Below are positions 2,355 through 27,578 of a stretch of 32,000 nucleotides of DNA, piece after piece (the first letter of the stretch is position 1; every line of letters starts with the position of its first letter). The stretch spans positions 3,690,001 through 3,722,000 of the forward strand of contig OY969938.1 in NCBI GenBank assembly GCA_963704755.1, read 5' to 3'. This stretch comes from an uncultured Chloroflexia bacterium (GTDB lineage: Bacteria > Chloroflexota > Anaerolineae > Anaerolineales > Anaerolineaceae). Below the pieces are notes generated by a model, which saw nothing but the letters and a program-made list of their open reading frames with translations, was not told the origin of the DNA and did no database searches. Made by a program: the position numbers and the translations under genes.

Positions 2355-4940
2355 TCAAGTCATATCATCCCGAAGCGCGTCAATAATATTTTCTCTTTTT
2401 ATTTTGCTAATGGCATACATCATGGTGACAAAGATTACAAGAAGCACGCTGAACATGCTGATTCCGAAACTGGCCCACGGTACCACAAAATGGATATTGT
2501 CCGCCCCGCCTGCGACCATCCCTTTATAGATCAGCCAGGAGAAGATCATTGCCAGGGGAAGCCCGTAAAGCAGCGCTCTCAGGCCATAAAAAGCACATTC
2601 GAAGCGCATCATTTTATTGAAATTGCGATCGGACATCCCCACCGAGCGGAGCATGGCAAGCTCCCGACGGCGCAGTTTGATATTCGTGGAAATCGTGTTG
2701 AACACATTGGCAACCGCAATCAACGATATCATGACGATAAACGTATATGCGAACACATTGGCAATGAATATCATGTTACGATTCTGATCGAGCATTTCGG
2801 ACGTATTCAAAATGATGTATGCGGTTTTGATTCCCGCGTCCTGGATCATCGCTTTCATTTCGTCCATCGATTGCATTGGATTGGTCGACTGAAAGGTCAT
2901 GCCTTTGACCAGGGTATTTCTCGTGGTATCGGAAGGAGCAAGCTTTTCCTTGAGCGAATAGGGACTTATTACCCAAAAAGCGTAGGGTCGCCGTTCGGAG
3001 GTGCCTATCATCGGGGGCGTGTCAGGCAACACGACATTGACAAACGTAATGTTCACGTTTTGCCCTTGTTCCGTTTGCGGCTTGCCATTTATTTCAGGCG
3101 CAATGGCAAAACTCGCGGAAGAACTTTTGAACAGATCGCTAAGCTGATCACCCCCGTTCTCCGTATTGCTGTTTCCCTGTATTTTGGCCACGGCGATCAT
3201 TTTAGCATTTTGTCCGGTATATTCCTCCGTAGGCAGCCCCAGGCTTTTGATCATATTCAGATAGGTGCTGTCGTCAAGAAACTGGACGTTCATTGGCAGA
3301 TTCACGGTTTCACCCGGTGTATGTGCGCCTGCAAATTCCCAGTAAGTGTCCGATAGCTTGTCTGCCTGAATGGCAGCAGAATACATCATAATCACCTGGT
3401 ATGAGCTGCCGGTAACGCCATTGGCGGTCTTCAGTTTGTCGTAAAGTTGCAGCAATTCGCTGTCGCTCATATCCTGTGTGCCAAAACCGATATCATAGGT
3501 AGTGACCACTTTTGCCGGCTCCGATGCCTGACTCAAATCCGTTACAAAAGCAGTAGCCGATACAAAAAGCACAATGCTCAAAACGAGTGACAGCACAATA
3601 CTGCGATAACGCCTTTTATTTCTTTTGAAATTCTTTAGCGCAAGGATTCCCTCCAGGCCGTAAACACGTTCCGCGAGTTTTGAAGTTTTCACGGCTTTGG
3701 ATTCGATTTTGATCTCATTCGTCTGGCGAATACTCTCCATCACCGGCGTGCTTGCGGCCTTACGAGCCGGGATATAGGCTGAGATCAAAATGGTGACCAT
3801 GCTGACCACCGCCGCAGCGCCAATGGCGGGGAAGGATACCGTCAAGGTTAACGGGACGTTCTTGTAGAGAATGTTGGTGAAATTTTTGGCGACAACCGAA
3901 AGCACCACCCCCATGCTGCCTATCCCAACGATAACGCCGATCGGTATGCCGACCGCGCCGATACAGAGCCCCTCAAACAACACCGAATAGCGCAGTTGTT
4001 TTGCGGTAGCCCCTACCGACGAGAGAATCCCGAACTGGTGCATGCGCTCATTCATGGAGATGTTGAATGAATTGTAAATCAGGAAAATCGAGCCAATCAT
4101 GATAATCGCTATCACGATGCCGCCAACCGAGTAAAGTAATGCGTTGAAAATATTATCGGACGAAAGCCCCATGAAACGCAGCACATCATTGTTCAAGATG
4201 TAAGCATGGCTTCCGGCCGTGCTTTTTGCGTAAGCATAAACTTCACGTGGGTTTTTCAGGGTGACAAACAAGCTGAAATCATCCGTCGGGTTTCCGGCAT
4301 CTGCGGCTGTGACGATGGTGTATCCCGGTGCAGAATCCTCCTCAAAGTGGGGCGTTTGGTAAATGCCAACCACCGTGTATGTCCTCTCAGCTTTTGAGAC
4401 AAGGGTTTCTTTCCCGGAAATGTAAGGATCGTGTTGACCGAGCTTCTCGCTTCCGTCCATGCGATTCCCAACAGCAAGAGCAAGCGTGTCGCCCACCTTG
4501 AACTGAACGCCCCCCTTCGTCAAGACACTCCCCGGAATAAGAACTTCCTCGTTGTTTTTTGGCAGCCTGCCTGATACCAATGTTAAGGGCAAGGTATCAA
4601 AGGCTTTCTCCGTGAACCCGGCGATAAAGAGATATGGTTTGTTGGCGCTCTTCCCGCCGTCAAGTTTTGCGTAACCGATATTTTCAAATGTCGCTATGTT
4701 TGCCACTTTGCCGTTACTTGCCTGTTTTTCTACAAAGGAAGAGTTCACATCCTCAAATTCGACCTGCCAGCCGCCGTATTTCTGGGCCGCGCCGTTGGCC
4801 ATATAGTTCAGCAGAGAAACGCCAAAGTTGGCGACAGCCGTAATCATTCCGGCGGAAAGGACGACGCCAATTATCGTGACAATGGTGCGGGTACGGCTTT
4901 TTCTCATGCTTTGTAGGGTGACTTTGTTGAAAATGTTCAT
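2355..4940 (-). CDS. ABC transporter permease, FtsX/MacB-type, duplicated (861 aa)
   Basis: An N-terminal TM is followed by a large hydrophilic domain and a TM bundle, and this pattern occurs twice. This matches two fused FtsX-type modules. Its start overlaps the ATPase stop (ATGA at 4937-4940), indicating translational coupling. Confidence 0.85.
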   Translation of the reverse strand: MNIFNKVTLQSMRKSRTRTIVTIIGVVLSAGMITAVANFGVSLLNYMANGAAQKYGGWQVEFEDVNSSFVEKQASNGKVANIATFENIGYAKLDGGKSANKPYLFIAGFTEKAFDTLPLTLVSGRLPKNNEEVLIPGSVLTKGGVQFKVGDTLALAVGNRMDGSEKLGQHDPYISGKETLVSKAERTYTVVGIYQTPHFEEDSAPGYTIVTAADAGNPTDDFSLFVTLKNPREVYAYAKSTAGSHAYILNNDVLRFMGLSSDNIFNALLYSVGGIVIAIIMIGSIFLIYNSFNISMNERMHQFGILSSVGATAKQLRYSVLFEGLCIGAVGIPIGVIVGIGSMGVVLSVVAKNFTNILYKNVPLTLTVSFPAIGAAAVVSMVTILISAYIPARKAASTPVMESIRQTNEIKIESKAVKTSKLAERVYGLEGILALKNFKRNKRRYRSIVLSLVLSIVLFVSATAFVTDLSQASEPAKVVTTYDIGFGTQDMSDSELLQLYDKLKTANGVTGSSYQVIMMYSAAIQADKLSDTYWEFAGAHTPGETVNLPMNVQFLDDSTYLNMIKSLGLPTEEYTGQNAKMIAVAKIQGNSNTENGGDQLSDLFKSSSASFAIAPEINGKPQTEQGQNVNITFVNVVLPDTPPMIGTSERRPYAFWVISPYSLKEKLAPSDTTRNTLVKGMTFQSTNPMQSMDEMKAMIQDAGIKTAYIILNTSEMLDQNRNMIFIANVFAYTFIVMISLIAVANVFNTISTNIKLRRRELAMLRSVGMSDRNFNKMMRFECAFYGLRALLYGLPLAMIFSWLIYKGMVAGGADNIHFVVPWASFGISMFSVLLVIFVTMMYAISKIKRENIIDALRDDMT

Positions 4941-6701: not shown

Positions 6702-7368
6702 CCCCCAACCGGTACCCCGTCCCGCGAACGGTCAGAATAATTTGCGGGTTGGCGGGGTCGTTCTCGATCTTCTCTCGCAAGCGCTTGATATATACGGTCA
6801 ACGTATTGTCGTTGACAAACTCGCCCGCCGCGTCCCACAATTCGTCAAGTAACTTGACCCGTGTGAGAACACTTTTTGGGTGATTGATAAACACCAGCAA
6901 CAGGCGATACTCTAAGGCTGAAAGAAAAACCTCGTTACCGTCTTTTGTCACAACGCCGCTGGCCGTATCGACATGCAGCCCGCGAATGTTAAAATCCGAC
7001 TCGGATTGGCCTCTTTTTCGCAGGGCGGTTGCAATGCGAGCGATCAATTCACGCGGACGAAAGGGCTTGGTGATATAGTCATCCGCGCCCATATTTAACC
7101 CGGTCACAACGCTCGCTTCATCGCCAGAAGCCGTCAGAAAGATAACGGGAATATCTTGCGTTGCTTTGATTTCCGTGCAGACTGCAAAGCCATTTCCGTC
7201 AGGCAATGAAATGTCGACCAACGCCAGGTCAAATTTATTTCCGGCAAGCGCGGCAAGGGCATCCTTCCGCGTAGAGGCGTGGATGACCGTAAATCCCTCC
7301 GAGCGGAGCAAAAGTATCAGGTTTTTAGCGATTTCCTTATCGTCCTCAACCAGAAATATTCGTGGCAT
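6682..7368 (-). CDS. OmpR/PhoB-family response regulator
   Basis: Receiver domain (IFLVEDD, LVDISLPDGNG, TASGD, KPF) plus a winged-helix output (LTVRGTGYRL). ATG at 7368 is preceded by GGAGG with an 8-nt spacer. The ORF track extends to an upstream ATG at 7395. Confidence 0.85.
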   Translation of the reverse strand: MPRIFLVEDDKEIAKNLILLLRSEGFTVIHASTRKDALAALAGNKFDLALVDISLPDGNGFAVCTEIKATQDIPVIFLTASGDEASVVTGLNMGADDYITKPFRPRELIARIATALRKRGQSESDFNIRGLHVDTASGVVTKDGNEVFLSALEYRLLLVFINHPKSVLTRVKLLDELWDAAGEFVNDNTLTVYIKRLREKIENDPANPQIILTVRGTGYRLGGEYASE

Positions 7369-8741: not shown

Positions 8742-10394
8742 ATGTCACTCTTGACCAGGCTGGCATCGCTGCTGCTCGATCTGCCCCCTGCCGTAACTCA
8801 CAAAATCGAATACCAGCTTGATCTCCCGGTGCCAATGGCGGATGGGACCATCCTGCTGGCAAACCGGATTGCCCCAGTTGGTGGGGAAAAATTGCCGATT
8901 ATCTTGATCCGCAATCCCTATACCTCGCGGGGGAAGAAACCCGACTTCATTTCCTTAATAATTGCTGAGCGTGGTTATCAGGTGGTGGTCCAGAACTGCC
9001 GAGGCACCTGGGGTTCAGGCGGCACGTTCCAGCCTTTCGTGGATGACCGGGAAGATGGGCTGGCGACCTTTCAATGGTTGGCACAACAGCCCTGGTTCAG
9101 CGACTCAGTCGGAATGTACGGGTTGAGCTACTGGGGATATGCACAACTCGCTGCCGGTGCGGGCGCGCCGGATTTTGTCAAGGCGCTCATCCCTCAGATG
9201 GCAGCCTCACGTCTCTACGGCGTCATGTACGACCATGGGGTATTGAGCTTGGATGTTGCGCTCACCTGGAACTATCAAACCTATGTGTCGAATGTCCAGG
9301 AATCGGACAAGGATAAGGTGCGAGCCAATAAACAGCGCAAAGCCGCATTATCCAGAGGGTTCATGCACTTGCCTGTTGGAGAAGCAGATCAGGTCGCCCT
9401 AAAATTAACCTCTCCATTTTTCCAGGATCTCCTGTGTAATCAAAAGCCGGATGACAAGTTCTGGGCGACAATCGATCACTCGAAACGGGTTGATCAGATT
9501 GAGGCGCCGGTGCACTTCGTCGACGGATGGTACGACTTTTTCTTAGCCGATATGCTTGCCGACTACGCCGCGCTTTGCAAAGCTGGCAAAAAGCCGTACC
9601 TGACCATCGGCCCCTGGACGCACGCTGAAACCGGCGGTTTAAAGGCGGGTTTCACAGAAAGTTTTGCCTGGTATGACGCCTATCTGCGTGGCAACCGGGC
9701 CGCACTCCGTTCAGATCCGGTACGGGTTTTTGTGATGGGCATTAAAAAATGGGTGAACCTGCCAGCCTGGCCGCCACCTTCCACGGCGGCTGGTTGGTAC
9801 CTGCAAGCCGGCGGAAAACTCTCAACCGAAGCCCCTGTGGGGGAAACGGCCCCATCCCGTTATTGTTATGACCCAGCGAATCCAACACCGAGCGTGGGTG
9901 GTACCTTGTTGTTTGAGGGTGGTCCCAAGGATAATCGCACGCTCGAAGCGAGGACCGACGTACTCAGCATGACCAGCGATGCGATGGCTCACAACACCAC
10001 GATTATGGGCGCGGCATCGGTCGAGCTGTACATCCGGTCAACAAATGAGCACACTGATTTCTTTGCCAATCTGTGTGATGTATCCCCAAATGGCCGAAAG
10101 TCGATCAATATCTGCGATGGGATCATCCGGCTCACGCCACAATTGCAACCAAGCGACAAGGATGGCATCCGAAAAGTTACCATAGAGCTGCTTTCCACAG
10201 CCCATTGTTTCAAGAAGGATCACCGCATTCGTCTTCAGGTCTCAAGTGGCGCCCATCCCCGATATTTGCGTAACCTGGGAACCGGTGAGCCGATTTCAAC
10301 CGGCACATTGCTGCAGAAGGTTGACCAGGAGATATTCCATGATCGGGCCCATCCTTCCGTGCTCATTCTTCCTGTCCTTCCGACTCCAATTTAA
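8742..10394 (+). CDS. CocE/NonD-family (peptidase S15, X-Pro dipeptidyl-peptidase-like) alpha/beta hydrolase
   Basis: Nucleophile elbow GLSYWG and typical family length, with a C-terminal beta-sandwich-like region. GAGGA lies 6 nt upstream of ATG 8742. The ORF track starts two codons earlier, at 8736. Confidence 0.85.
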   Translation: MSLLTRLASLLLDLPPAVTHKIEYQLDLPVPMADGTILLANRIAPVGGEKLPIILIRNPYTSRGKKPDFISLIIAERGYQVVVQNCRGTWGSGGTFQPFVDDREDGLATFQWLAQQPWFSDSVGMYGLSYWGYAQLAAGAGAPDFVKALIPQMAASRLYGVMYDHGVLSLDVALTWNYQTYVSNVQESDKDKVRANKQRKAALSRGFMHLPVGEADQVALKLTSPFFQDLLCNQKPDDKFWATIDHSKRVDQIEAPVHFVDGWYDFFLADMLADYAALCKAGKKPYLTIGPWTHAETGGLKAGFTESFAWYDAYLRGNRAALRSDPVRVFVMGIKKWVNLPAWPPPSTAAGWYLQAGGKLSTEAPVGETAPSRYCYDPANPTPSVGGTLLFEGGPKDNRTLEARTDVLSMTSDAMAHNTTIMGAASVELYIRSTNEHTDFFANLCDVSPNGRKSINICDGIIRLTPQLQPSDKDGIRKVTIELLSTAHCFKKDHRIRLQVSSGAHPRYLRNLGTGEPISTGTLLQKVDQEIFHDRAHPSVLILPVLPTPI

Positions 10395-19221: not shown

Positions 19222-19263
19222 AGATCGAAGGACTTCTTGTTTCTTTCGAATTTCCCAGCCTAG

Positions 19264-19334
19264 AGGCGACGACGGGATTCGGACCCGTGATCAGGGTTTT
19301 GCAGACCCTTGCCTTACCACTTGGCCACGTCGCC
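19264..19334 (-). tRNA. tRNA-Cys (anticodon GCA)
   Basis: The reverse complement is GGCGACG-TG-GCCAAGTGGTAAGGC-A-AGGGT-CTGCAAA-ACCCT-GATC-ACGGG-TCCGAAT-CCCGT-CGTCGCC-T. The U73 discriminator is typical of tRNA-Cys. Confidence 0.9.
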
Positions 19335-19346
19335 GGAAACAGAACG

Positions 19347-19375
19347 ATTTTAACAAACAAGCTGGGATTGGTCAA
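19347..19375 (-). promoter_or_regulatory. Promoter candidate for tRNA-Cys: TTGACC-17 nt-TAAAAT
   Basis: Read on the minus strand; the -10 ends 12 nt before the tRNA 5' end. Confidence 0.5.
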
Positions 19376-19628
19376 GGTGAGGATTCGGAGGGGGTTGAAA
19401 ACTCCCTCCATTCCAGCTCCTGGATCCCCAGGGAAATCACTAATGGTCATTGTTCTCCATTTCCCGGTAAGCCCTGCTATACTCAAAGAATAAAGTTTTT
19501 ATAACCGCCCGGCCTGATGGTTAAAAAAAAAGCCCGAAATTGCGGTGTTTGCCGTCGATTTTGGCATAGGGCTGAAGTGCTACAAAATTTTAATGTTTCC
19601 TCGGTAGAACCTGATCGGTGAGGTGAAT

Positions 19629-19958
19629 ATGGCATATGATGAACAGTTAGCCCGGCGAATCCGGGAAGCGCTGGATGGTCTAGAAAATGTCGTCGAAAAG
19701 AAGATGTTCGGTGGGGTGACTTTTTTGGTGCAGGGCAATATGGCCTGTGGCGTGAATAAGGAAAACCTGATCGTGCGCCTGGGCAGCGATAAGGTGAAGC
19801 AGGCGCTTTTAGACGACTATGTAATTCCTTTTGCACTAACCGGCAGCCCGATGGCCAACTGGGTTTTGGTCAAGCCGGCCGGCTGCCGCAGCGATGAAGA
19901 TTTAAAAAATTGGGTCGGCCTGGGTGTGGATTATGCCTCCTCGTTACCGCCTAAATAA
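19629..19958 (+). CDS. TfoX/Sxy N-terminal-domain family protein
   Basis: ARRIREAL..KKMFGGVTFLVQGNMACGV..LIVRL is the typical TfoX_N pattern. ATG 19629 lies behind GGTGAGG. Confidence 0.7.
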   Translation: MAYDEQLARRIREALDGLENVVEKKMFGGVTFLVQGNMACGVNKENLIVRLGSDKVKQALLDDYVIPFALTGSPMANWVLVKPAGCRSDEDLKNWVGLGVDYASSLPPK

Positions 19959-20004
19959 TGGTTTACTTGCCGACTGGATCGAAAATAAGCGAGAAGTAAA
20001 CACG

Positions 20005-20361
20005 ATGTACGAGCATAAAAACGAACCCTTACTGCCAAGAGCAAAATTCTACCTGCGCATGGCTTACCATCTTGCTTTTGCATTGGGTATGGTGATCGTG
20101 TCCCTGGCGATTGGGGTGGTGGGGTATCACTATCTGGAAGGGTTATCCTGGGTCGATTTGCTGTTGAATTCAGCCATGCTGCTGGGGGGAATGGGGCCGG
20201 TCAACCCGCTGCAAACCACGGCCGGGAAACTGTTCGCCTCGTTTTACGCCCTTTTCTCGGGGATGATCTTCCTGGTTATTTTTGGGGTCCTAATTGCCCC
20301 GGTTTTTCACCGCTTTTTACACCGTTTTCACCTCGAGTTGGAGGATGACACGGATAATTAA
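20005..20361 (+). CDS. Small membrane protein resembling a two-TM pore-loop ion channel with a non-canonical filter
   Basis: Layout is TM1, then SWVDLLLNSAMLLGGMGPVNPLQTTAGKLF, then TM2. This parallels the K+-channel pore helix/filter region (xxDAxYFSxxTxTTVGYGDxxPxTxxGKxF), but GGMGP replaces TVGYG. Confidence 0.6.
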   Translation: MYEHKNEPLLPRAKFYLRMAYHLAFALGMVIVSLAIGVVGYHYLEGLSWVDLLLNSAMLLGGMGPVNPLQTTAGKLFASFYALFSGMIFLVIFGVLIAPVFHRFLHRFHLELEDDTDN

Positions 20362-20415
20362 CGACGTCACGTGAGAATGAAAAGATCGTAATTACTCAGC
20401 CAGCGCAGAAGAAAT

Positions 20416-20472
20416 AGGGTGTTGATCTTATTTTTTGCATGCGAAGCATGCAAAAAATAATATCAACACCCT
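20416..20472. repeat. Long palindromic hairpin (27-nt arms, 1 mismatch, GAA tip inside GCATGC-GAA-GCATGC), palindrome family B
   Basis: AGGGTGTTGATCTTATTTTTTGCATGC / GCATGCAAAAAATAATATCAACACCCT. No T run follows it. Confidence 0.7.
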
Positions 20473-20556
20473 CCCCTTCAAAACTTGCTCGAGCAGTTAC
20501 AAAAAAGCCATCAAGTTTTTATCTTCAATTGTATAGCGATCGGGTGGGAGGAAATT

Positions 20557-20979
20557 ATGGATGATTCAAAGTTGGTTAATTGTGCGGCCGTGTTCTTGTC
20601 GGAAAACGTGGAACGTACCGTCCAGTATTATCAGGATGTGTTAGGTTTTCGGGTGGTGACCCATTACGAAAATCCCGAGAAATTTGCCGCGATGTACCGG
20701 GATGACATCGAAATTGTGGTGGTGCTGGCCAGGTTTGGTCCGGTGCTGCCGAACCGGCGCCGCTATGGCGCGGGCTACGATGCCTACCTGGACCCCGCAA
20801 CTGTGGAAGGGGTGGACGGCCTGTACCAGGAATTCAGAAACCGCGGAGCGGTAATCCTCAATGCGCCGTCAATGACAGCCTATGGCAGCTATGAATTTAT
20901 CCTGGAGGACATCGATTCACGCCAGGTGTGCATCGGGCGGATCAAGCAGAAGGAAGTCTTCTTCGGCGACAAGGCCTGA
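20557..20979 (+). CDS. VOC (glyoxalase/bleomycin-resistance fold) family protein
   Basis: Size and pattern (VERTVQYYQDVLGF..) fit the family. GGGAGG RBS before ATG 20557. The assignment rests on pattern recognition only. Confidence 0.65.
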   Translation: MDDSKLVNCAAVFLSENVERTVQYYQDVLGFRVVTHYENPEKFAAMYRDDIEIVVVLARFGPVLPNRRRYGAGYDAYLDPATVEGVDGLYQEFRNRGAVILNAPSMTAYGSYEFILEDIDSRQVCIGRIKQKEVFFGDKA

Positions 20980-21068
20980 CCCGGGCAGCGAAGGCGTTTT
21001 CATGTGCAGGTGGCTCGATGACCAGCAGCTTCACAACTTTTGCGCTGCCCCCTTTGGCGGCTGAGTGC

Positions 21069-22055
21069 TCAAGTCGGGCGGCACTCGACCATAAAGGTGC
21101 TGGATGATTGTTGTCCGGCAGCGATTACTTCCAGTCCAGCCTTCTGCGCAAGCCCCCGAAACTCTGTTATGGTGCGATTCTTCCCTCCTAATAGCACCAT
21201 TTCGATCCGCAAGTCTTTGGGGGTATTATCCGGCCCGACACTTTTCAGAACCACGACCCGGCCGTCCGGCCGGGCGGCCTCGGCGCAGCGCTGTAAAATC
21301 TGGACCGCTTCTCGATCAGGCCAATCGTTCAGTACTCCCCTGAGTAAATAAAGGTCAGCACCGGGTGGCAGCAATTCGAAGAAACTCTGCCCGGAGATGG
21401 ATGCCCGTTCAGCTACACCGGCAGCATGGAAGATCGATCCAGAACGGGCCACTGTCCGGGGTAAATCGACCAGGGTTCCCCGGACTTCCGGGTGGGCACG
21501 CAAAATCTCGGCCAGCATTGCCCCGGTCCCTCCACCGACATCGACTACCGTCCGCACCGATCCCCAGCCGCCGGTAAGGCGGATTTCCGGATCAGGGGCG
21601 CCGTGGCCAGATGGCCCGATGAGGGCGTCAAAATCGGCGGCCAGGTTCGGGTGAGCGTCGAGGTCTTCCCAGAAAGGCAGCCCAAAAAGTTTGCTATAAG
21701 CCGGTTCACCGCGTCTGACATAATCGAGCAGAGTACCCCAGGCGTAAGCCATCCGTCCGCCGATGCCATCAAGATTAAGGAATTGTCCAAAAGAGGGGTC
21801 TAATAGCTGCCGGGCAGCATCGTTTAGTGAGAATTGGCCGGGAGCAATTTCTTCGAACACACCTTTGGCGATCAAGTGGCCAAGCACCTGATGGAGGGCA
21901 GTGGGATCACAGCCTGCGGCCTTGGCGAGGTCGTCGATTCGGTCTATCCCGGCCGCGATATGACCGGCAATGTCCAGGGTCGCCACTACGTGAATGCACC
22001 AGGGCGTGCACAGATCGGTCAGATCAAAGAGGTTTACTTCGCTTTTTTGAGGCAT
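21069..22055 (-). CDS. SAM-dependent O-methyltransferase (Methyltransf_2 family with N-terminal dimerisation/winged-helix domain)
   Basis: SAM motif VVDVGGGTG, the downstream DLP..V motif, and ~330 aa, typical of small-molecule OMTs. Confidence 0.85.
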   Translation of the reverse strand: MPQKSEVNLFDLTDLCTPWCIHVVATLDIAGHIAAGIDRIDDLAKAAGCDPTALHQVLGHLIAKGVFEEIAPGQFSLNDAARQLLDPSFGQFLNLDGIGGRMAYAWGTLLDYVRRGEPAYSKLFGLPFWEDLDAHPNLAADFDALIGPSGHGAPDPEIRLTGGWGSVRTVVDVGGGTGAMLAEILRAHPEVRGTLVDLPRTVARSGSIFHAAGVAERASISGQSFFELLPPGADLYLLRGVLNDWPDREAVQILQRCAEAARPDGRVVVLKSVGPDNTPKDLRIEMVLLGGKNRTITEFRGLAQKAGLEVIAAGQQSSSTFMVECRPT

Positions 22056-22134
22056 TCCTGAAACCTTTAAAATTTTTACATATACACCAAACTATACCGC
22101 ATATATCTAAATGTTGTCATGAAATAATATTAAT

Positions 22135-22980
22135 GCTATAAAAACACAAAGCCCGGCTTACGTCGGGCTCTCTGGTTGCGTAGCTCGGCTTTCAAAGCCG
22201 AGAAAACGCCGGCCGAAAAGAGTTCCGGCTACGGAAACGACCTGAACCAAAAAGGAGCCCCACGAAGGTGGGGCTTTGTGTATCTGTAGGTGCAGCTTTA
22301 GCTGCCAACAGTTCGTTCCTGCTTCTACGTTGGCGACTGAAGTCGCAGCTATAAAAACACAAAGCCCGGCCTACGCCGGGATCTCTGGTTGCGTAGCTCG
22401 GCTTTCAAAGCCGAGAAAACACCGGCCGAATAGATTTCCGGCTACGGAAACGACCTGAACCAAAAAAGAGTCCCACGAAGGTGGGGCTTTGTGTATCTGT
22501 AGGTGCAGCTTTAGCTGCCAACGGTTCGTTCCTGCTTCTACGTTGGCGACTGAAGTCGCGGCAAAAAGTACACAAAGCCCGGCCTACGCCGGGCGCTCTG
22601 GTTGCGTAGCTCGGCTTTCAAAGCCGAGAAAACGCCGGCCGAAAAGAGTTCCGGCTACGGAAACGACCTGAACCAAAAAGGAGCCCCACGAAAGTGGGGC
22701 TTTGCGTATCTGTAGGTGCAGCTTTAGCTGCCAACGGTTCGTACCTGCTTCTACGTTGGCGACTGAAGTCGCAGCTATAAAAACACAAAGCCCGGCCTAC
22801 GCCGGGCTCTCTGGTTGCGTAGCTCGGCTTTCAAAGCCGAGAAAACGCCGGCCGAATAGAGTTCCGGCTACGGAAACGATCTGAACCAAAAAGGAGCACC
22901 ACGAAGGTGGGGCTTTGTGTATCTGTAGGTGCAGCTTTAGCTGCCAACGGTTCGTTCAATAGCTCGGCCTTCAAAGCCAG
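22135..22980. repeat. Tandem array 1: ~3.9 copies of a 213-bp hairpin-dense unit (REP/BIME-like)
   Basis: ACACAAAGCCC recurs at 22143, 22356, 22569 and 22782, an exact 213-bp period. Each unit has at least 5 GC-rich stem-loops. The array ends with a degenerate hairpin copy at about 22960-22978. Confidence 0.92.
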
Positions 22981-22987
22981 GAAATAT

Positions 22988-23140
22988 CTATGTTGTTTTT
23001 TTCGTGTTTAATTGCCTTGCTCCAAGGATAAAAAGAAAAATTCCCAAAGCCGTGATTGGCATGCCGGCCGCATAGCTAACCGTTGAATTTAATATCGGTC
23101 CACTTATGATTAGGATTATTCCAAAAATTACTCTCGGCAT
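22988..23140 (-). CDS. Candidate small membrane protein (50 aa, two hydrophobic segments); not in the supplied ORF track (<60 aa)
   Basis: Minus strand reads GGGAGG-TTAATT-ATG, then MPRVIFGIILIISGPILNSTVSYAAGMPITALGIFLFILGARQLNTKKTT, then TAG. Strong RBS. No homology can be asserted. Confidence 0.4.
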   Translation of the reverse strand: MPRVIFGIILIISGPILNSTVSYAAGMPITALGIFLFILGARQLNTKKTT

Positions 23141-23172
23141 AATTAACCTCCCACGTAACTATTTAAGAAGTG

Positions 23173-23227
23173 CCCGAATTTAAGGTGTTTGCGAGGGCGA
23201 AGCCCTCGCAAACACCTTAAATTCGGG
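23173..23227. repeat. Perfect 26-bp-stem palindrome with GAA triloop (palindrome family A)
   Basis: CCCGAATTTAAGGTGTTTGCGAGGGC-GAA-GCCCTCGCAAACACCTTAAATTCGGG; the arms are exact reverse complements. Confidence 0.85.
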
Positions 23228-23340
23228 GTTCTTACCCTTCAGACTAAGCAGTTACCCGCTACTTTATAGATAGCTCTTTGGAAAATAATATCATGAAATT
23301 TAAGCTAATAATCGAATAAACCGTTACACACTGTAAGAAT

Positions 23341-23997
23341 ATCGTCGTGGCAACCCACGAAGCTTAAAAAGAAAAACCTCAACTTTATGAGGTTTTTTGA
23401 GCGGGCGATGGGAACTCGATCATTGATCCCCCTACGGGGAACCACGAACTTAAAAAGAAAAACCTCAACTTTATGAGGTTTTTTGAGCGGGCGATGGGAC
23501 ACGATCATTGATCCCCCCGCGGGGAACCACGAGCTTAAAAAGAAAAACCTCAACTTTATGAGGTTTTTTAAGCAGGCGATGGGACACGATCATTGATCCC
23601 CCTACGGGGAACCACGAGCTTAAAAAGAAAAACCTCAACTTTATGAGGTTTTTTGAGCGGGCGATGGGACACGATCATTGATCCCCCTACGGGGAACCAC
23701 GAGCTTAAAAAGAAAAACCTCAACTTTATGAGGTTTTTTGAGCGAGCGATGGGACACGATCATTGATCCCCCTACGGGGAACCACGAAGCTTAAAAAGAA
23801 AAACCTCAACTTTATGAGGTTTTTTGAGCGGGCGATGGGACTCGATCATTGATCCCCCTACGGGGAACCACGAGGTTAAAAAGAAAAACCTCAACTTTAT
23901 GAGGTTTTTTGAGCGGGCGATGGGACACGATCATTGATCCCCCTACGGGGAACCACGAAGCTTAAAAAGAAAAACCTCAACTTTATGAGGTTTTTTG
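23341..23997. repeat. Tandem array of eight 85/86-bp units directly abutting the tRNA-Gly 3' end. Each unit has a terminator hairpin plus a CCCC-CTAC-GGGG hairpin, and seven units also carry a 15-19-nt copy of the tRNA-Gly 3' end.
   Basis: CCTCAACTTT starts at 23377, 23463, 23548, 23633, 23718, 23804, 23889 and 23975. AGCGGGCGATGGGA(C) recurs 7 times and an eighth time as the true tRNA end. Confidence 0.92.
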
Positions 23998-24070
<73 letters not shown>

Positions 24071-24088
24071 AGTCCTGAACGTTCCGAA

Positions 24089-24117
24089 ATTATATACAGG
24101 AATTCTCCAGACGTCAA
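24089..24117 (-). promoter_or_regulatory. Sigma70 consensus-like promoter for tRNA-Gly: TTGACG-17 nt-TATAAT
   Basis: Read on the minus strand: TTGACG (24117-24112), a 17-nt spacer, and TATAAT (24094-24089). An 18-nt leader precedes the tRNA. Confidence 0.6.
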
Positions 24118-24242
24118 CCCTTCTCCAGGTTATCAAAACTATCAAGTTGCATTGCTTGACACGCATTTTTCAGTATGCTAAAGTTAATTTCACTCCGAAA
24201 GGCCACTTCGGTGTATGTGACTCTGGAATAAGGAGTTCCCCC

Positions 24243-24614
24243 TTGACTAAAAATCGTACTCAAATGATGGTAGAGCGTTTGCGTGAACTTCAAGCCTCAT
24301 CGATGGACATCGAAGCCTCTGCGATCGTAAGCGTGGATGGCTTGACCATCGCTTCTGCCCTCCCGCAAGGCGTGGAAGAGGACCGTGTCTCGGCTATGTC
24401 GGCGGCGATGTTATCCCTGGGCGAGCGGATTGCCAGCGAGCTTGGCCGGGGAGGACTGGAACAGGTTTACATTAAAGGAGAGAAAGGCTACGTGGTCTTG
24501 ATGTCAGTAGGGGAAGAGGCCGTACTCACCACCCTGGCACGCGAACAAGCCAAGCTGGGCCTGATTCTGCTGGATATGCGCCGGGCAACTGAAGACCTGG
24601 AAAAGTTGATCTAA
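24243..24614 (+). CDS. Roadblock/LC7 (MglB-like) domain protein
   Basis: ASAIVSVDGLTIASAL..RVSAMSAAMLSLGERIA..LEQVYIKGEKGYVVLMSVGEEAVLTTL fits the Robl_LC7 pattern. AAGGAG lies 7 nt before TTG 24243. Alternative start at ATG 24264. The track's upstream extension to 24147 runs into the tRNA promoter. Confidence 0.8.
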   Translation: MTKNRTQMMVERLRELQASSMDIEASAIVSVDGLTIASALPQGVEEDRVSAMSAAMLSLGERIASELGRGGLEQVYIKGEKGYVVLMSVGEEAVLTTLAREQAKLGLILLDMRRATEDLEKLI

Positions 24615-24622
24615 CGGGCATT

Positions 24623-25255
24623 ATGGAATTGATTCCGAAAAGCGGTTACTATTATCCGAACAAGATTGCCCGCATCGCGCTCCTGGCGATCGAGGACGTG
24701 ATGGGCAAAAATGGACTTAATGCAGTTTTGAACCTGGCCGGGTTAAGCGAAATCATTAACCATTACCCGCCGGATAACCTCGAGCGCCAGTTCGACTTTG
24801 CCGATTTCTCGGCCGTTCAGGGTGGGCTGGAGGAGATGTACGGTCCGCGCGGTGGGCGAGGACTGGCTTTACGGGCCGGACGGGCTACTTTCGACGCTGC
24901 GCTGCGTAACTTCGGCGCCCTGGCCGGGGTGGGTGACCTGGCTTTCAAGGTGCTGCCGCTGCAAGCCAAGCTGCGCATCGGCATGGGGGCAATGGCCCGT
25001 ATCTTTTCACAAACCAGCGACCAGCAGACCACGGTCGAGGAAAAAGACGACCATTTCGTCTACCTTATTCACCGCTGCCCGGTCTGTTGGGGGCGACAAA
25101 CCGAAAAGCCGGCCTGTTTTATCGCCACGGGCTTGCTCCAGGAGGGCCTGAAATGGGTCTCGGGGGGACACGAGTTTCGCGTTTCGCAGGAAACGGCCCA
25201 TTCGGCAGGAGACGAATCCTGCAATTTCATCATTTATAAAGATCCGCTCGAATAG
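24623..25255 (+). CDS. V4R (4-vinyl reductase) domain protein
   Basis: C-terminal pattern HRCPVC..KPACFIATGLLQEGLKWVSGG..AGDESCNFII is characteristic of V4R / COG1719-type small-molecule-binding domains. Confidence 0.7.
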   Translation: MELIPKSGYYYPNKIARIALLAIEDVMGKNGLNAVLNLAGLSEIINHYPPDNLERQFDFADFSAVQGGLEEMYGPRGGRGLALRAGRATFDAALRNFGALAGVGDLAFKVLPLQAKLRIGMGAMARIFSQTSDQQTTVEEKDDHFVYLIHRCPVCWGRQTEKPACFIATGLLQEGLKWVSGGHEFRVSQETAHSAGDESCNFIIYKDPLE

Positions 25256-25355
25256 GGGACCGGGTGGAATGAGAGCGTCCTCTCTGCTTTTCGGGAGCAA
25301 TTTTCGACAAATAGAGGGTTGCCTCGATCCAAATCGGGATAAAATTAGTGCATAT

Positions 25356-25392
25356 CCGGCGGCCCAGAAATTTCCATTGGCCGCCGGTTGTT
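25356..25392 (+). terminator. Weak terminator candidate CCGGCGGCC..(13-nt loop)..GGCCGCCGG-TTGTTT
   Basis: 9-bp GC stem followed by a short interrupted T tract, downstream of the V4R gene. Confidence 0.35.
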
Positions 25393-25441
25393 TACGGCGT
25401 CGTGAACGGCGCTGCATAAAAAATCAATCATCAGGTATTCT

Positions 25442-26179
25442 TTGAAAACGACTTTTGTTATTCCGACGTATAACGAAGCAGAGAATTTGCCCAAGCTGGC
25501 TTCGGCTTTATTCGATTTGGGCTTGAGCGATTTGAGCCTGCTGGTGGTGGACGATAACAGCCCGGACGGTACCGGCCAAATCGCCGAAGACCTGGCGGTG
25601 CAGTGGAACGGGCGAGTGCAGGTGATGCACCGGCCGGGTAAGATGGGCCTGGGCAGTGCCTACATTCAGGGTTTTACCCGCGCGCTCAACCTGGGGGCCG
25701 AGGCGATTGGCCAGATGGACGCCGATTTTTCTCACCCGACCGAAAAGGTGGCTGACTTAACGCGTTCCTCCGAAACTGCCGACCTCTCGCTGGGTTCGCG
25801 CTACGTGCCGGGCGGAAAATTGGACGATCGCTGGCCGGCCTCGCGAAAATGGCTCTCCGGCTTTGGAAATGTTTATGCTCGTACTATCCTGGGAATGCAG
25901 ATTCGCGACGTGACCGGTGGGTTCCGCCTATGGCGGGCGGAAGCGCTGCGGCGTATGCCTTTGGAGCGGGTCAAGTCGAATGGTTACATCTTCCAGGTGG
26001 AGATGGCTTACATCGCCAGCCTGTTGGGGTTTCGTGTCACCGAAATCCCGATCTACTTTGCCGACCGGCGCTGGGGCCAGTCCAAGATGTCGATGCGGAT
26101 CCAGTTGGAGGCGGCTTACCGGACCTGGCTGCTGCCTGGCCTGTACACCGATCTGCGCCGGAAGCGCTCGCTGCTGTAG
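25442..26179 (+). CDS. GT2 polyprenol/dolichol-phosphate mannosyltransferase (Ppm1/DPM1-like)
   Basis: FVIPTYNEAENL, VVDDNSPDGT and QMDADFSHP motifs. TTG start. The stop codon TAG (26177-26179) lies inside the first GTAG motif of repeat array 2. Confidence 0.85.
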   Translation: MKTTFVIPTYNEAENLPKLASALFDLGLSDLSLLVVDDNSPDGTGQIAEDLAVQWNGRVQVMHRPGKMGLGSAYIQGFTRALNLGAEAIGQMDADFSHPTEKVADLTRSSETADLSLGSRYVPGGKLDDRWPASRKWLSGFGNVYARTILGMQIRDVTGGFRLWRAEALRRMPLERVKSNGYIFQVEMAYIASLLGFRVTEIPIYFADRRWGQSKMSMRIQLEAAYRTWLLPGLYTDLRRKRSLL

Positions 26180-27000
26180 CCCGGCTTTCCAAGCCGGGAA
26201 TGTGCTGGGTTAAAGAGCCTTCGAGGTTATAACCAGGCCTTTGGCCACGGCGGTGGCAGTTGAAACTGCACCTACAAGGACACAAAGCCCCACCTGCGTG
26301 GGGCTCCTTTGGGAGTGCAGGTCGCTGCCTAAGGCGGAACTCTGTTCGGGCGGCGTATTCTCGGCTTTGAAAGCCGAGCTACGCAACCGGGGAGCCCGGC
26401 GAAGGCCGGGCTTTGTGTATTTGTAGAAGCGACTTCAGTCGCTAACGAATGAAGACACCCTGTAGCCCGGCTTTCCAAGCCGGGAATGTGCTTGGTTAAA
26501 AGAGCCTTCGAGGTTATAACCAGGCCTTTGGCCACGGCGGTGGCAGTTGAAACTGCACCTACAAGGACACAAAGCCTCACCTGCGTGGGGCTCCTTTTTG
26601 GCTACAGGTCGCTGCCTAAGCCGGAACTCTGTTCGGGCGGCGTATTCTCGGCTTTGAAAGCCGAGCTACGCAACCGGGGAACCCGGCGAAGGCCGGGCTT
26701 TGTGTATTTGTAGCCGCGACTTCAGTCGCTAACGAATGAAGACACCCTGTAGCCCGGCTTTCCAAGCCGGGAATGTGCTGGGTTAAAAGAGCCTTCGAGG
26801 TTATAACCAGGCCTTTGGCCACGGCGGTGGCAGTTGAAACTGCACCTACGAGGACAAAAAAGCCCCACCTGCGTGGAGCTCCTTTTGGGGGTGCAGGTCG
26901 TTTCCGTAGCCGGAGACCTGTTCGGGGGGCGTATTCTCGGCTTTGAAAGCCGAGCTACGCAACCGCGGAGCCCGGCGAAGGCCGGGCTTTGTACTTCTGT
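26175..27000. repeat. Tandem array 2: ~2.9 copies of a 286/287-bp unit. It has a core homologous to array 1 but in inverted orientation, plus an extra GTAG-hairpin module.
   Basis: TGTAGCCCGGCTTTCCAAGCCGGG occurs at 26175, 26461 and 26748. The core (e.g. 26265-26420) is the reverse complement of the array 1 unit at roughly 80-85% identity by eye. Confidence 0.92.
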
Positions 27001-27137
27001 TGATGCACTTTCTATCGTTAACGAGGCAAATTAATCCCACCGATCCAATTGCACTGCATCCTTTCTCAAGGAATTTTCGTATACGAAAGTGGGATAAACA
27101 AAATTGGATGAGGGGGGTAAAAATATTGGGAGGAAAA

Positions 27138-27578
27138 ATGCAGCAGGCTATTTGGGATTTTGTACAGTGTAAAGAAATTGCCGTCGTTGGCGCTTCACGT
27201 TCCGGCAAGAAGTTCGGCAACTCCATCGCTAGCGAGTTACGCCAACGGGGCTACCAGGTTTTTTTAGTGCATCCAGAGGCTCAAGAAATCGATAGGCAAC
27301 TTTGCTACCCCAATCTGGCAGCCCTGGAGGGCAAAGTCAACGCAGTGGTCATCTGTGTACCGCCGTACAAGGCTGCCCAGGTGCTGCGTGAAGCGGTTGC
27401 GGCCGGGGTGAAGAATATCTGGCTTCAGCAAGGAGCCGACTTAAGTGAAGCCCAGAAAGTGGCCCACGAACTGGGCGTCGAACCGGTCTCCGGCAAGTGC
27501 ATTTTGATGTATGCGGGGCAGGTCAGTTCGGTGCACGCTTTCCATCGCTTCATCTGGAAGCTGGTCGGTCAGTATTAG
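27138..27578 (+). CDS. CoA-binding domain protein (YccU/YneT-like)
   Basis: IAVVGASRSGKKFGN.. is the typical CoA_binding_2 N-terminus. GGGAGG lies before ATG 27138. The upstream part of track ORF 26943 runs through repeat array 2. Confidence 0.8.
   Translation: MQQAIWDFVQCKEIAVVGASRSGKKFGNSIASELRQRGYQVFLVHPEAQEIDRQLCYPNLAALEGKVNAVVICVPPYKAAQVLREAVAAGVKNIWLQQGADLSEAQKVAHELGVEPVSGKCILMYAGQVSSVHAFHRFIWKLVGQY

Follow-up and report, generated by a model that had tools for sequence, protein, structure and literature searches.

Two inverted tandem arrays of probable GTAG-tagged extragenic palindromes beside a Roadblock–glycosyltransferase operon in an Anaerolineaceae genome

The GTAG-tagged superfamily of repetitive extragenic palindromes (REPs), defined by Di Nocera 2013 and reportedly also treated by Nunvar 2010, is among the closest described counterparts of two tandem repeat arrays, arrays 1 and 2, that bracket a group of genes in the 32,000-nucleotide stretch of Anaerolineaceae DNA analyzed here (the window). 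Its members are palindromes of 20–40 nt with an unpaired GTAG at one end, and they are known from several phyla, Chloroflexi among them (Di Nocera et al. 2013, PMC3733652). The units are commonly paired in opposite orientation across spacers of 20–100 nt, which sometimes contain stem-loops, and lie mainly downstream of open reading frames (ORFs), between unidirectional or convergent genes, where the GTAG often supplies a TAG stop codon (PMC3733652). The precedent in Chloroflexi, GTAG-23, is clustered at few loci, and in Thauera arrays of GTAG repeats flank an exopolysaccharide gene cluster (PMC3733652). In Escherichia coli, bacterial interspersed mosaic elements of the second type (BIME-2) consist of tandem copies of REP and inverted REP that are well conserved within a locus and variable in copy number between strains (Ton-Hoang et al. 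2012, PMC3333891); such tandem copies can be built by strand transfer catalyzed by TnpA_REP (PMC3333891).

Arrays 1 and 2 agree with the published descriptions of GTAG-REPs and BIMEs in every structural feature that could be tested. We regard their membership among these clusters as probable, rather than proven, and assign a probability of about 0.6 to the reading that they are tandemly amplified, BIME-2-like clusters of small GTAG-tagged, REP-type palindromic extragenic repeats. Both are lineage-specific additions at two intergenic sites, each internally homogeneous, diverged from the other and oriented with its upstream gene. We know of no description of REP- or BIME-style clusters in the Anaerolineae, although no search for one was made, and the arrays would provide a clear example of them.

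Structure of arrays 1 and 2

22135–22990, minus strand: array 1, about four units of 213 nt (22135–22347, 22348–22560, 22561–22773 and 22774–22990, the final unit partly degenerate)
26174–27034, plus strand: array 2, three units of 286–288 nt (26174–26459, 26460–26746 and 26747–27034)

Tandem Repeats Finder delimited a core of array 1 at 22135–22957 (period 213, 3.9 copies, 94% matches) and a core of array 2 at 26174–26992 (period 287, 2.9 copies, 94% matches); adding the degenerate edge units in a seven-unit alignment stretches the arrays to approximately 22990 and 27034. The sense strand of array 1 was set as minus, the strand that carries its T-tract terminators and also the upstream small ORF. 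The two arrays represent one repeat family in opposite orientation. A repeat finder recovered inverted arms of 133–141 nt at 85–86% complementarity between them, with shorter arms of 57–64 nt at 83–88% complementarity per unit pair, and the seven-unit alignment shows homology of the array 2 units with array 1, taken as its reverse complement, across approximately 205 nt. These results bear out the two inverted arrays around a gene group that a preliminary description of this stretch had reported. Every array 2 unit contains an extra segment of approximately 75 nt, and the unit lengths of the two arrays are thus unequal. Units are 90–96% identical within an array (90–95% in array 1, 91–96% in array 2) and 80–85% identical between arrays, and the longest exact inverted match between array 1 and array 2, common to 12 unit pairs, is 31 nt. 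The roughly 0.8 kb of inverted homology noted previously is real, but it comes at this reduced identity, in units of unequal length and with exact matches of at most 31 nt. Thirty-two diagnostic columns of the alignment separate the arrays, and the units are pure at these columns with one exception, the outermost array 2 unit, in which a block of four sites shows the array 1 state, most simply as an ancestral feature. The module consensus sequences are GTAG + CYCGGCTTTCNAAGCCGRG, GTAGGTGCAGYTTNARCTGCC, GTAGCCGGAAC.. and GTAGNNGCGACTTCAGTCGC. The characteristic motifs of the repeats are confined to the two arrays within the window, against shuffle expectations of 0.00 and 0.52 matches.

The units are built from the following modules.

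26176–26198, plus strand (also 26462–26484 and 26749–26771): h0, GTAG-tagged hairpin GTAGCCCGGCTTTCCAAGCCGGG, in array 2 only
26255–26275, minus strand (also 26542–26562 and 26829–26849): h1, GTAG-tagged hairpin GTAGGTGCAGTTTCAACTGCC, tag opposite to the terminator strand
22286–22306, 22499–22519, 22712–22732 and 22925–22945, plus strand: array 1 counterparts of h1, GTAGGTGCAGCTTTAGCTGCC
26284–26310, plus strand (also 26571–26597 and 26859–26885): h2, linker consisting of a GC hairpin and T tract, AAAGCCCCACCTGCGTGGGGCTCCTTT
22254–22277, 22467–22490, 22680–22703 and 22893–22916, minus strand: array 1 counterparts of h2
26330–26355, plus strand: h3, imperfect hairpin (CCGGAACTCTGTTCGG-like)
22208–22232 and at +213 steps, minus strand: h3 in array 1, GTAGCCGGAACTCTTTTCGGCCGGC
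26360–26382, minus strand (also 26647–26669 and 26936–26958): h4, GTAG-tagged hairpin GTAGCTCGGCTTTCAAAGCCGAG, tag opposite to the terminator strand
22180–22202, 22393–22415, 22606–22628 and 22819–22841, plus strand: array 1 copies of h4, with a degenerate copy at 22959–22981
26391–26416, plus strand (also 26678–26703 and 26967–26992): h5, linker consisting of a GC hairpin and T tract, GGAGCCCGGCGAAGGCCGGGCTTTGT
22148–22171, 22361–22384, 22574–22597 and 22787–22810, minus strand: array 1 counterparts of h5, with a GTAG loop
26423–26442, plus strand (also 26710–26729; degenerate in unit 3): h6, GTAG-tagged hairpin GTAGAAGCGACTTCAGTCGC
22332–22352, for example, minus strand: array 1 counterparts of h6, ATAG-tagged

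Read on the strand with the T-tract terminators (plus for array 2, minus for array 1), the modules follow the order h1(−) h2 h3(+) h4(−) h5 h6(+) in 7/7 units, and array 2 units hold two small stem-loops in addition to h0. Each unit is a mosaic of four to five short, GC-rich stem-loops, each bearing an unpaired GTAG or ATAG at its foot. The stem-loops alternate in orientation, and the conserved linkers between them are in turn GC hairpins with a T tract behind. Stems measure 8 bp with a 3-nt core loop in h0 and h4 and 5–6 bp with 4-nt loops in h1 and h6, while h3 is imperfect and includes a G·T pair. Five distinct hairpin types carry the tag, on both strands inside one unit. The tag of h3 is present in unit 3 of array 2 and in all array 1 units; in array 2 units 1 and 2 it reads TAAG, a degenerated GTAG. 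A single compensatory stem change (T-A versus C-G) distinguishes h1 of the two arrays, and h4 lies within a 31-nt block that is invariant across 7/7 units. Approximately 31 tagged hairpins were counted, all within arrays 1 and 2. A GTAG followed by a perfect hairpin occurs at 21 sites in the window, 19 of them inside the arrays, compared with about 6 expected in composition-matched shuffles.

The alternating orientation of the tagged hairpins makes the 213-nt unit quasi-palindromic, and either strand of it folds into a single long imperfect hairpin (z = −6.0 and −7.4 relative to shuffles); the corresponding values for the 287-nt unit are −4.9 and −5.9. In the hairpin model 95.8% of cells are paired, a statistic that is biased by the derivation of the structure from the same sequences, and the roughly two independent compensatory events in seven sequences give too little power for an analysis of covariation.

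How does this anatomy compare with described systems? The short GC-rich stem-loop, the unpaired GTAG or variant at its foot and the position downstream of ORFs with a TAG stop are features of GTAG-REPs; the regular alternation of REP and inverted REP with conserved linkers, in tandem copies conserved within the locus, is that of BIME-2. Bertels and Rainey are said to have defined REPINs as REP doublets forming hairpins. Like these, the 213-nt unit contains inverted REPs that fold together with their spacer into a long hairpin, and a simple doublet exists in the closest relative (locus L018), but REPINs are dispersed single doublets replicated by a REP-associated tyrosine transposase (RAYT), whereas here doublets occur only in local tandem arrays. 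The BIME-2/REP-RAYT system of E. coli shares with the arrays palindromes with GTAG at the foot, alternation with linkers, tandem reiteration, position after stop codons and copies that are well conserved at one locus yet diverged from one locus to another (PMC3333891). It differs in that a BIME-2 pair spans no more than about 100 nt, compared with 213–287 nt and six to seven modules including terminator-type linkers, in that its copies are dispersed and accompanied by a RAYT gene, which was not seen within the window, and in its host, a proteobacterium rather than a member of the Anaerolineae (Chloroflexota). The GTAG-23 blocks of Thermomicrobium roseum and Roseiflexus belong to the same phylum, a likeness drawn from their description and not from a consensus sequence (PMC3733652). 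They are associated with small GC-rich palindromes with 3–4-nt loops (CCGSSCC n3-4 GGSSCGG) that are comparable to h2 and h5, although in our arrays such palindromes are linkers rather than demonstrated insertion targets. The GTAG-1 arrays of Thauera sp. MZ1T likewise flank a gene cluster with glycosyltransferase-type functions and have been proposed to modulate expression, but they are mentioned in passing without mechanistic data and belong to another repeat family and phylum (PMC3733652).

Placement, transcription signals and synteny

22988–23140, minus strand: 50-aa ORF predicted to span the membrane, a putative gene with a weak GtrII match (E=5e-4)
23355–24016, minus strand: array 3, 85 nt × 7.7 (96%), directly after tRNA-Gly and repeating its 3' end
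23997–24070, minus strand: tRNA-Gly(GCC), at whose 3' end homology to relatives stops on the left
24117–24089, minus strand: promoter-like site of tRNA-Gly, TTGACG-17-TATAAT
24156–24184, plus strand: promoter-like site of the Roadblock operon, TTGACA-17-TAAAGT
24243–26179, plus strand: conserved core operon of Roadblock/LC7 (Robl_LC7, 24243–24614), V4R (24623–25255) and family 2 glycosyltransferase (GT2; Glycos_transf_2, 25442–26179)
27035–27578, plus strand: CoA_binding_2 gene (27138–27578) with its ancestral upstream region, including a motif, TTTTCGTATAC, common to the L018 spacer
21069–22120, minus strand: O-methyltransferase gene (21069–22055) with a promoter-like site at 22120–22091, just past the outer end of array 1

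tRNA and domain searches confirmed the tRNA-Gly, Roadblock, V4R, GT2 and small-ORF content assigned earlier to the interval between the arrays, which also contains a third array, 23355–24016, that had been overlooked. Both arrays 1 and 2 lie between co-directional genes and begin in the stop codon of the gene upstream. The TAG stop of GT2 (26177–26179) falls in the GTAG of the first h0 of array 2, where the window reads ...CTG CTG TAG and L018 reads ...CTG GCC TGA. At the other end, the TAG stop of the small ORF (22990–22988) is provided by the ATAG of the first, degenerate module of array 1.

A terminator scan of 21800–27400 found 29 terminator-like sites, compared with 8.8 expected. All matches in array 1 (10/10) and array 3 (8/8) are on the minus strand and all in array 2 (4/4) on the plus strand, so that in each array these sites point the same way as the upstream gene, and a promoter scan found no sigma-70-like site inside the array units. 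The divergent promoter-like region at 24089–24184 is conserved in L018. As RNA, the arrays would present 8, 6 and, for array 3, 8 consecutive terminator-type hairpins, and once transcribed they may serve as stacks of intrinsic terminators and as hairpins that stabilize 3' ends. Array 2 would block read-through from GT2 into the CoA-binding gene; on the other side, the arrays would keep transcription that starts at the strong tRNA-Gly promoter out of both the small ORF and the O-methyltransferase gene, and small-ORF transcripts out of the latter. Of the proposed transcriptional insulation by stacks of hairpin-plus-T-tract modules, the stacks themselves stand and could insulate, but according to the terminator scan they are directional rather than bidirectional. 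The arrays are plausible natural multi-terminator insulators.

The V4R protein has 5135 homologues, the nearest named ones in Anaerolineaceae (Bellilinea caldifistulae, 85–86%, Levilinea and Anaerolinea), and a protein identical to it lies on a 4.87-Mb contig. By blastn, the Roadblock–V4R–(response regulator)–GT2 block is conserved among the relatives' loci, with homology starting exactly at the 3' end of tRNA-Gly (23994–23997) and ending at the GT2 stop codon (26173). The closest relative, L018 (V4R identity 89%, approximately 80% nucleotide identity), has the order tRNA-Gly(−), Roadblock, V4R, response regulator, GT2, CoA-binding, flavodoxin, RsmA(−) and G5(−), which is also that of the window, and it has no tandem array at either site: its tRNA-Gly is followed by one plain terminator, and its spacer between GT2 and the CoA-binding gene measures approximately 300 nt versus 958 nt in the window. 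The motif TTTTCGTATAC of the ancestral CoA-binding upstream region is retained beyond array 2, and since it is common to the L018 spacer, array 2 was inserted between the GT2 stop and that region. Array 2 is thus an insertion in a conserved backbone, and array 1 is part of a lineage-specific variable island. Synteny resolves 22981–26174 into island (22981–23996) and backbone (23997–26173), and the interval is neither a unit nor cargo.

That island forms part of a longer segment of 4.66 kb (19335–23996) that separates tRNA-Cys (19263–19334) from tRNA-Gly, two genes that are adjacent in L028, a locus from a different genus. It contains TfoX_N, an Ion_trans_2 protein, a glyoxalase, the O-methyltransferase, array 1, the 50-aa ORF and array 3, and resembles an island without integrase that sits at the 3' end of a tRNA. 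Within it, 23000–23354 is AT-rich (GC 0.40). In the core operon, the response-regulator gene (approximately 870 nt) found between V4R and GT2 in most relatives (L014–L018, L030–L034) is absent from the window and replaced by a spacer of 186 nt (25256–25441); L028 and L029, likewise lacking the gene, have spacers of approximately 190 nt.

Origin of the arrays

We propose the following course of events for the arrays as GTAG-REP/BIME-like clusters. Two already diverged members of the family would have come to lie at the 3' end of each of two transcription units that point outward: the small ORF (minus strand) and GT2 (plus strand). Local expansion of each array would have followed, whether through slippage or unequal exchange in the hairpin-rich DNA or through strand transfer by a REP-associated Y1 transposase. 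The inverted arrangement would be a by-product of the divergent gene orientation, and the arrays would not be paired recombination arms.

Several points weigh against this assignment. Units of 213–287 nt with six or seven modules exceed the complexity of classical BIMEs, and single copies of several hairpins carry unrepaired stem mismatches, which indicates that selection on each hairpin is weak. No copy of the array modules was found outside arrays 1 and 2 in the remaining ~30 kb of the window, nor a RAYT/Y1 (Y1_Tnp) transposase in the window, and neither exact-pattern scans of genome, metagenome and viral collections nor translated ORFs brought the family to light; it may be confined to this locus. 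The terminator or insulator function is, for its part, deduced from consensus scans. The pattern GTAGCNCGGCTTTCNAAGCCGNG retrieved isolated hairpins in unrelated taxa only (13 genome-contig loci, 9 metagenome-contig loci and 0 viral), the genome with the identical V4R protein not being represented in these matches, and blastn of the arrays against all retrieved loci found nothing past the 23–25-nt hairpin. At the relatives' loci, GTAG hairpins showed no enrichment, with counts at chance level except for one tail-to-tail GTAG doublet in L018. That doublet, which has the same form as h1, speaks for the assignment, as does the occurrence of the exact GTAG hairpin of the arrays in other bacteria, often near further GTAG hairpins, in Tepidisphaeraceae, Actinoplanes and Arcicella.

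The arrays might alternatively descend from a terminator-rich intergenic stretch that was duplicated once, as an inverted segmental copy, and whose two copies then expanded independently through slippage or unequal crossover, with no transposase, no wider family and a GTAG inherited from a single ancestral hairpin without mechanistic meaning. The confinement of all window copies to arrays 1 and 2, the lack of homologues in genome, metagenome, viral and protein collections, and array 3, where the locus amplified short terminator-containing segments that lack a GTAG-REP structure, are all in keeping with such an event. We nevertheless consider it unlikely, given that five distinct hairpins keep a GTAG or ATAG tag in both orientations, that the stop codon at either insertion point comes from the tag, that a GTAG doublet of the same form is present in the nearest relative, and that a divergence of 15–20% together with a 75-nt indel between the founders implies two long-separated family members. 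It is also conceivable, but distinctly improbable, that the arrays encode cis- or trans-acting structured RNA, either processed small RNAs or a long structured 3' or 5' untranslated region regulating the flanking genes. The strong folding relative to shuffles, the paired fraction of 95.8% with one clear compensatory change in h1 between arrays and the co-directionality of the sense strand with the flanking genes point that way; yet no unit has a promoter-like site, Rfam gave no match, both strands fold equally well, as DNA palindromes should, individual copies carry stem-breaking mutations, the arrays are not conserved in relatives, and the pairing statistics are biased by taking the structure from the very sequences tested.

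A different kind of explanation concerns the interval between the arrays, for which the preliminary description had suggested RecA-mediated inversion and a composite or invertible element. Site-specific inversion systems switch a promoter or a gene end via near-identical crossover sites. Hin/Gin/Cin, the fim switch, shufflons and composite transposons bounded by insertion sequences (IS) resemble the locus in having inverted repeats around a few kilobases, but they rely on short near-identical sites or an intact IS, an adjacent recombinase or transposase, and a promoter or gene-end switch, none of which exists here. Pfam scans of every sizeable ORF in the window detected no recombinase, integrase or transposase domain, in agreement with the earlier statement that none is encoded nearby. 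Homologous inversion of 22991–26173, giving two genomic isomers, would find roughly 0.8 kb of inverted homology with a 31-nt perfect match in 12 unit pairs, and Roadblock–GT2 has indeed been moved or reoriented relative to RsmA–G5 in deeper relatives (L033/L034 versus L018/L028/L030). RecA, however, needs a minimal pairing length, and mismatch repair suppresses exchange between diverged sequences; at 15–20% divergence the arrays are a poor substrate, and 31 nt of exact match is close to the minimum for efficient RecA pairing. A reciprocal crossover would leave mosaic arrays, whereas arrays 1 and 2 are unmixed at the 32 diagnostic sites. The core has the same orientation relative to the right flank in the window, L018, L028 and L030, the present orientation thus being that of the closest relatives. 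GC skew on the + strand, at +0.06 to +0.14 in the core genes, agrees in sign and magnitude with both flanks, and GC content and GC at third codon positions match the flanks as well, including genes on the minus strand, so that the compositional check proposed for the supposed cassette revealed no difference. The rearranged relatives L033 and L034, moreover, lack these arrays and have a clustered regularly interspaced short palindromic repeat (CRISPR) array after GT2 instead. In the absence of any recombinase, promoter or gene-end logic to switch, inversion between the arrays appears very unlikely as their explanation, and a rare inversion within a population would be compatible with the sequence alone. 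Inverted repeats around a few genes, and a left flank that is non-syntenic with relatives, could also arise if the arrays enclosed a composite transposon or some other mobile cassette, or if a mis-join in the assembly had produced one of the arrays, but we give these possibilities almost no credence. Relatives keep the backbone, 23997–26173, in place and with its gene order unchanged, and it runs across array 2 into the CoA-binding, flavodoxin, RsmA and G5 genes, so the right half of the interior and the exterior right flank are one contiguous ancestral stretch and the supposed cassette is not one unit; the synteny comparison proposed for it found this half collinear, in the same orientation, and L018 free of arrays. 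A mis-join or collapsed repeat would yield one array as a copy of the other, whereas unequal unit lengths and 32 diagnostic sites set these two apart, and the homologous protein record lies on a single 4.87-Mb contig.

The reading of the arrays as GTAG-REP/BIME-like clusters carries practical implications. Such arrays yield spurious ORFs, can break assemblies and should not be taken for the borders of a mobile cassette. If the genome has a cognate Y1 transposase, the REP-RAYT partnership would extend to this lineage, and the clustered rather than dispersed mode of Chloroflexi repeats would be explained.

Other identities were considered and rejected. The arrays do not encode protein repeats, as stops interrupt all frames of each unit and 287 is not divisible by 3; the array ORFs of 60–83 aa, for which a profile search found no homologue among 5.8 billion proteins, are spurious. 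Known RNA families were rejected on the basis of Rfam searches at gathering threshold and at E<=1, which returned tRNAs only, the sub-threshold matches (a miRNA at 31.6 bits versus a gathering threshold of 110 and tRNA-Sec at 22.2 versus 47) being palindrome artefacts, and ARAGORN found no tRNA in arrays 1 and 2. Integron attC sites were dismissed by inspection, there being no RYYYAAC/GTTRRRY core sites. A CRISPR identity was also discarded, since whole 213/287-nt units repeat at 90–96% without unique spacers. CRISPR arrays do occupy the slot of array 2, directly after GT2, in Bellilinea-like L015 (16019–16644), L030 (12734–13204) and L033 (12570–15295), with the repeat GTCCGAATCAAT(A/C)AATGCCCGTAAGGGCATTAAGAC and spacers of approximately 35 nt. 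They share with array 2 this slot and the form of a regular array of palindromic repeats, but the units in the window lack unique spacers and similarity to GTCCGAATCAATAAATGCCCGTAAGGGCATTAAGAC, and the window contains no cas genes.

Array 3 and other palindromic elements

The unit of array 3 contains a pseudo 3' third of tRNA-Gly. It comprises the start of the variable loop/T arm, a 24-nt insert in the T loop with the hairpin CCCC-GTAG-GGGG, the T stem, the 3' strand of the acceptor stem, TCCCATCGCCCGCTC, and a perfect terminator, AAAAACCTCATAAAGTTGAGGTTTTT. The same construction is found in L028 at 9078–9229 (minus strand), where two copies of 70 nt follow tRNA-Cys, with the sequence ACGGGTTCAAA + CCCCC-GCAG-GGGGGCGCTGT + CCCGTCGTCGCC. 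No tandem array of pseudo-3'-tRNA was found at nine other tRNA genes checked in the window and in relatives, and the array 3 pattern had no match in viral contigs. Array 3, the L028 repeats, the start of arrays 1 and 2 in upstream stop codons and the GNAG-loop linkers together raise the speculative and rather improbable idea of a single undescribed, lineage-specific process that tandemly copies the 3' ends of transcription units with GC hairpins of GNAG loop. If it were correct, the Anaerolineae would possess a 3'-end-templated amplification, for example by HUH/Y1 single-strand transfer or by template switching at hairpins, and the inverted homology arising as its by-product could drive rearrangements around the Roadblock–GT2 operon in the family. 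The arrays would matter more if the tRNA 3'-fragment arrays, present in two genera, shared a mechanism with arrays 1 and 2.

The neighborhood of the RsmA–G5 pair is variable. The pair lies downstream of, and convergent with, Roadblock–GT2 in the window, L018, L028 and L030, and upstream and co-directional in L033 and L034; one or more inversions or translocations have thus taken place there during the evolution of Anaerolineaceae.

Four separate loci (L005, L009, L010 and L012) of one metagenome-assembled genome of a Tepidisphaeraceae planctomycete carry the hairpin GTAGCACGGCTTTCCAAGCCGTG, and in Actinoplanes (L007) and Arcicella (L001, L003, L004 and L006) it adjoins further GTAG-tagged hairpins. 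The GTAG/CNCGGC/TTTCNAA hairpin form thus recurs, well beyond Chloroflexota, as an element of REP type.

Between array 3 and the small ORF lies one further palindrome.

23173–23227: perfect palindrome with a 26-bp stem, CCCGAATTTAAGGTGTTTGCGAGGGC-GAA-GCCCTCGCAAACACCTTAAATTCGGG

It is located approximately 30 nt upstream of the ribosome-binding site of the small ORF. L018 has a similarly built long hairpin at 7269–7317, in the variable region left of tRNA-Gly, with the same outer arms (AAATTTAAGGT...ACCT(T/C)AAATTT) and an inner stem that is different and still complementary; the two may represent another family of palindromic elements in this clade. A different hairpin-rich tandem array is present in L015 at 3226–3887, with a period of 106 (× 6.3) or a two-subunit higher-order repeat of 210 (× 3.2), built from palindromes of the GTCATTGCGAGCCGCCG...CGGCGGCGTGGCAATCTCCCGC type. 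It lies between cytochrome cd1 and Tmk, where the gene order of relatives differs (cd1 and RsmA are adjacent in L030, RsmA and Tmk in L033), and its 106/210 periodicity is reminiscent of the way array 1 is subdivided (106+107).

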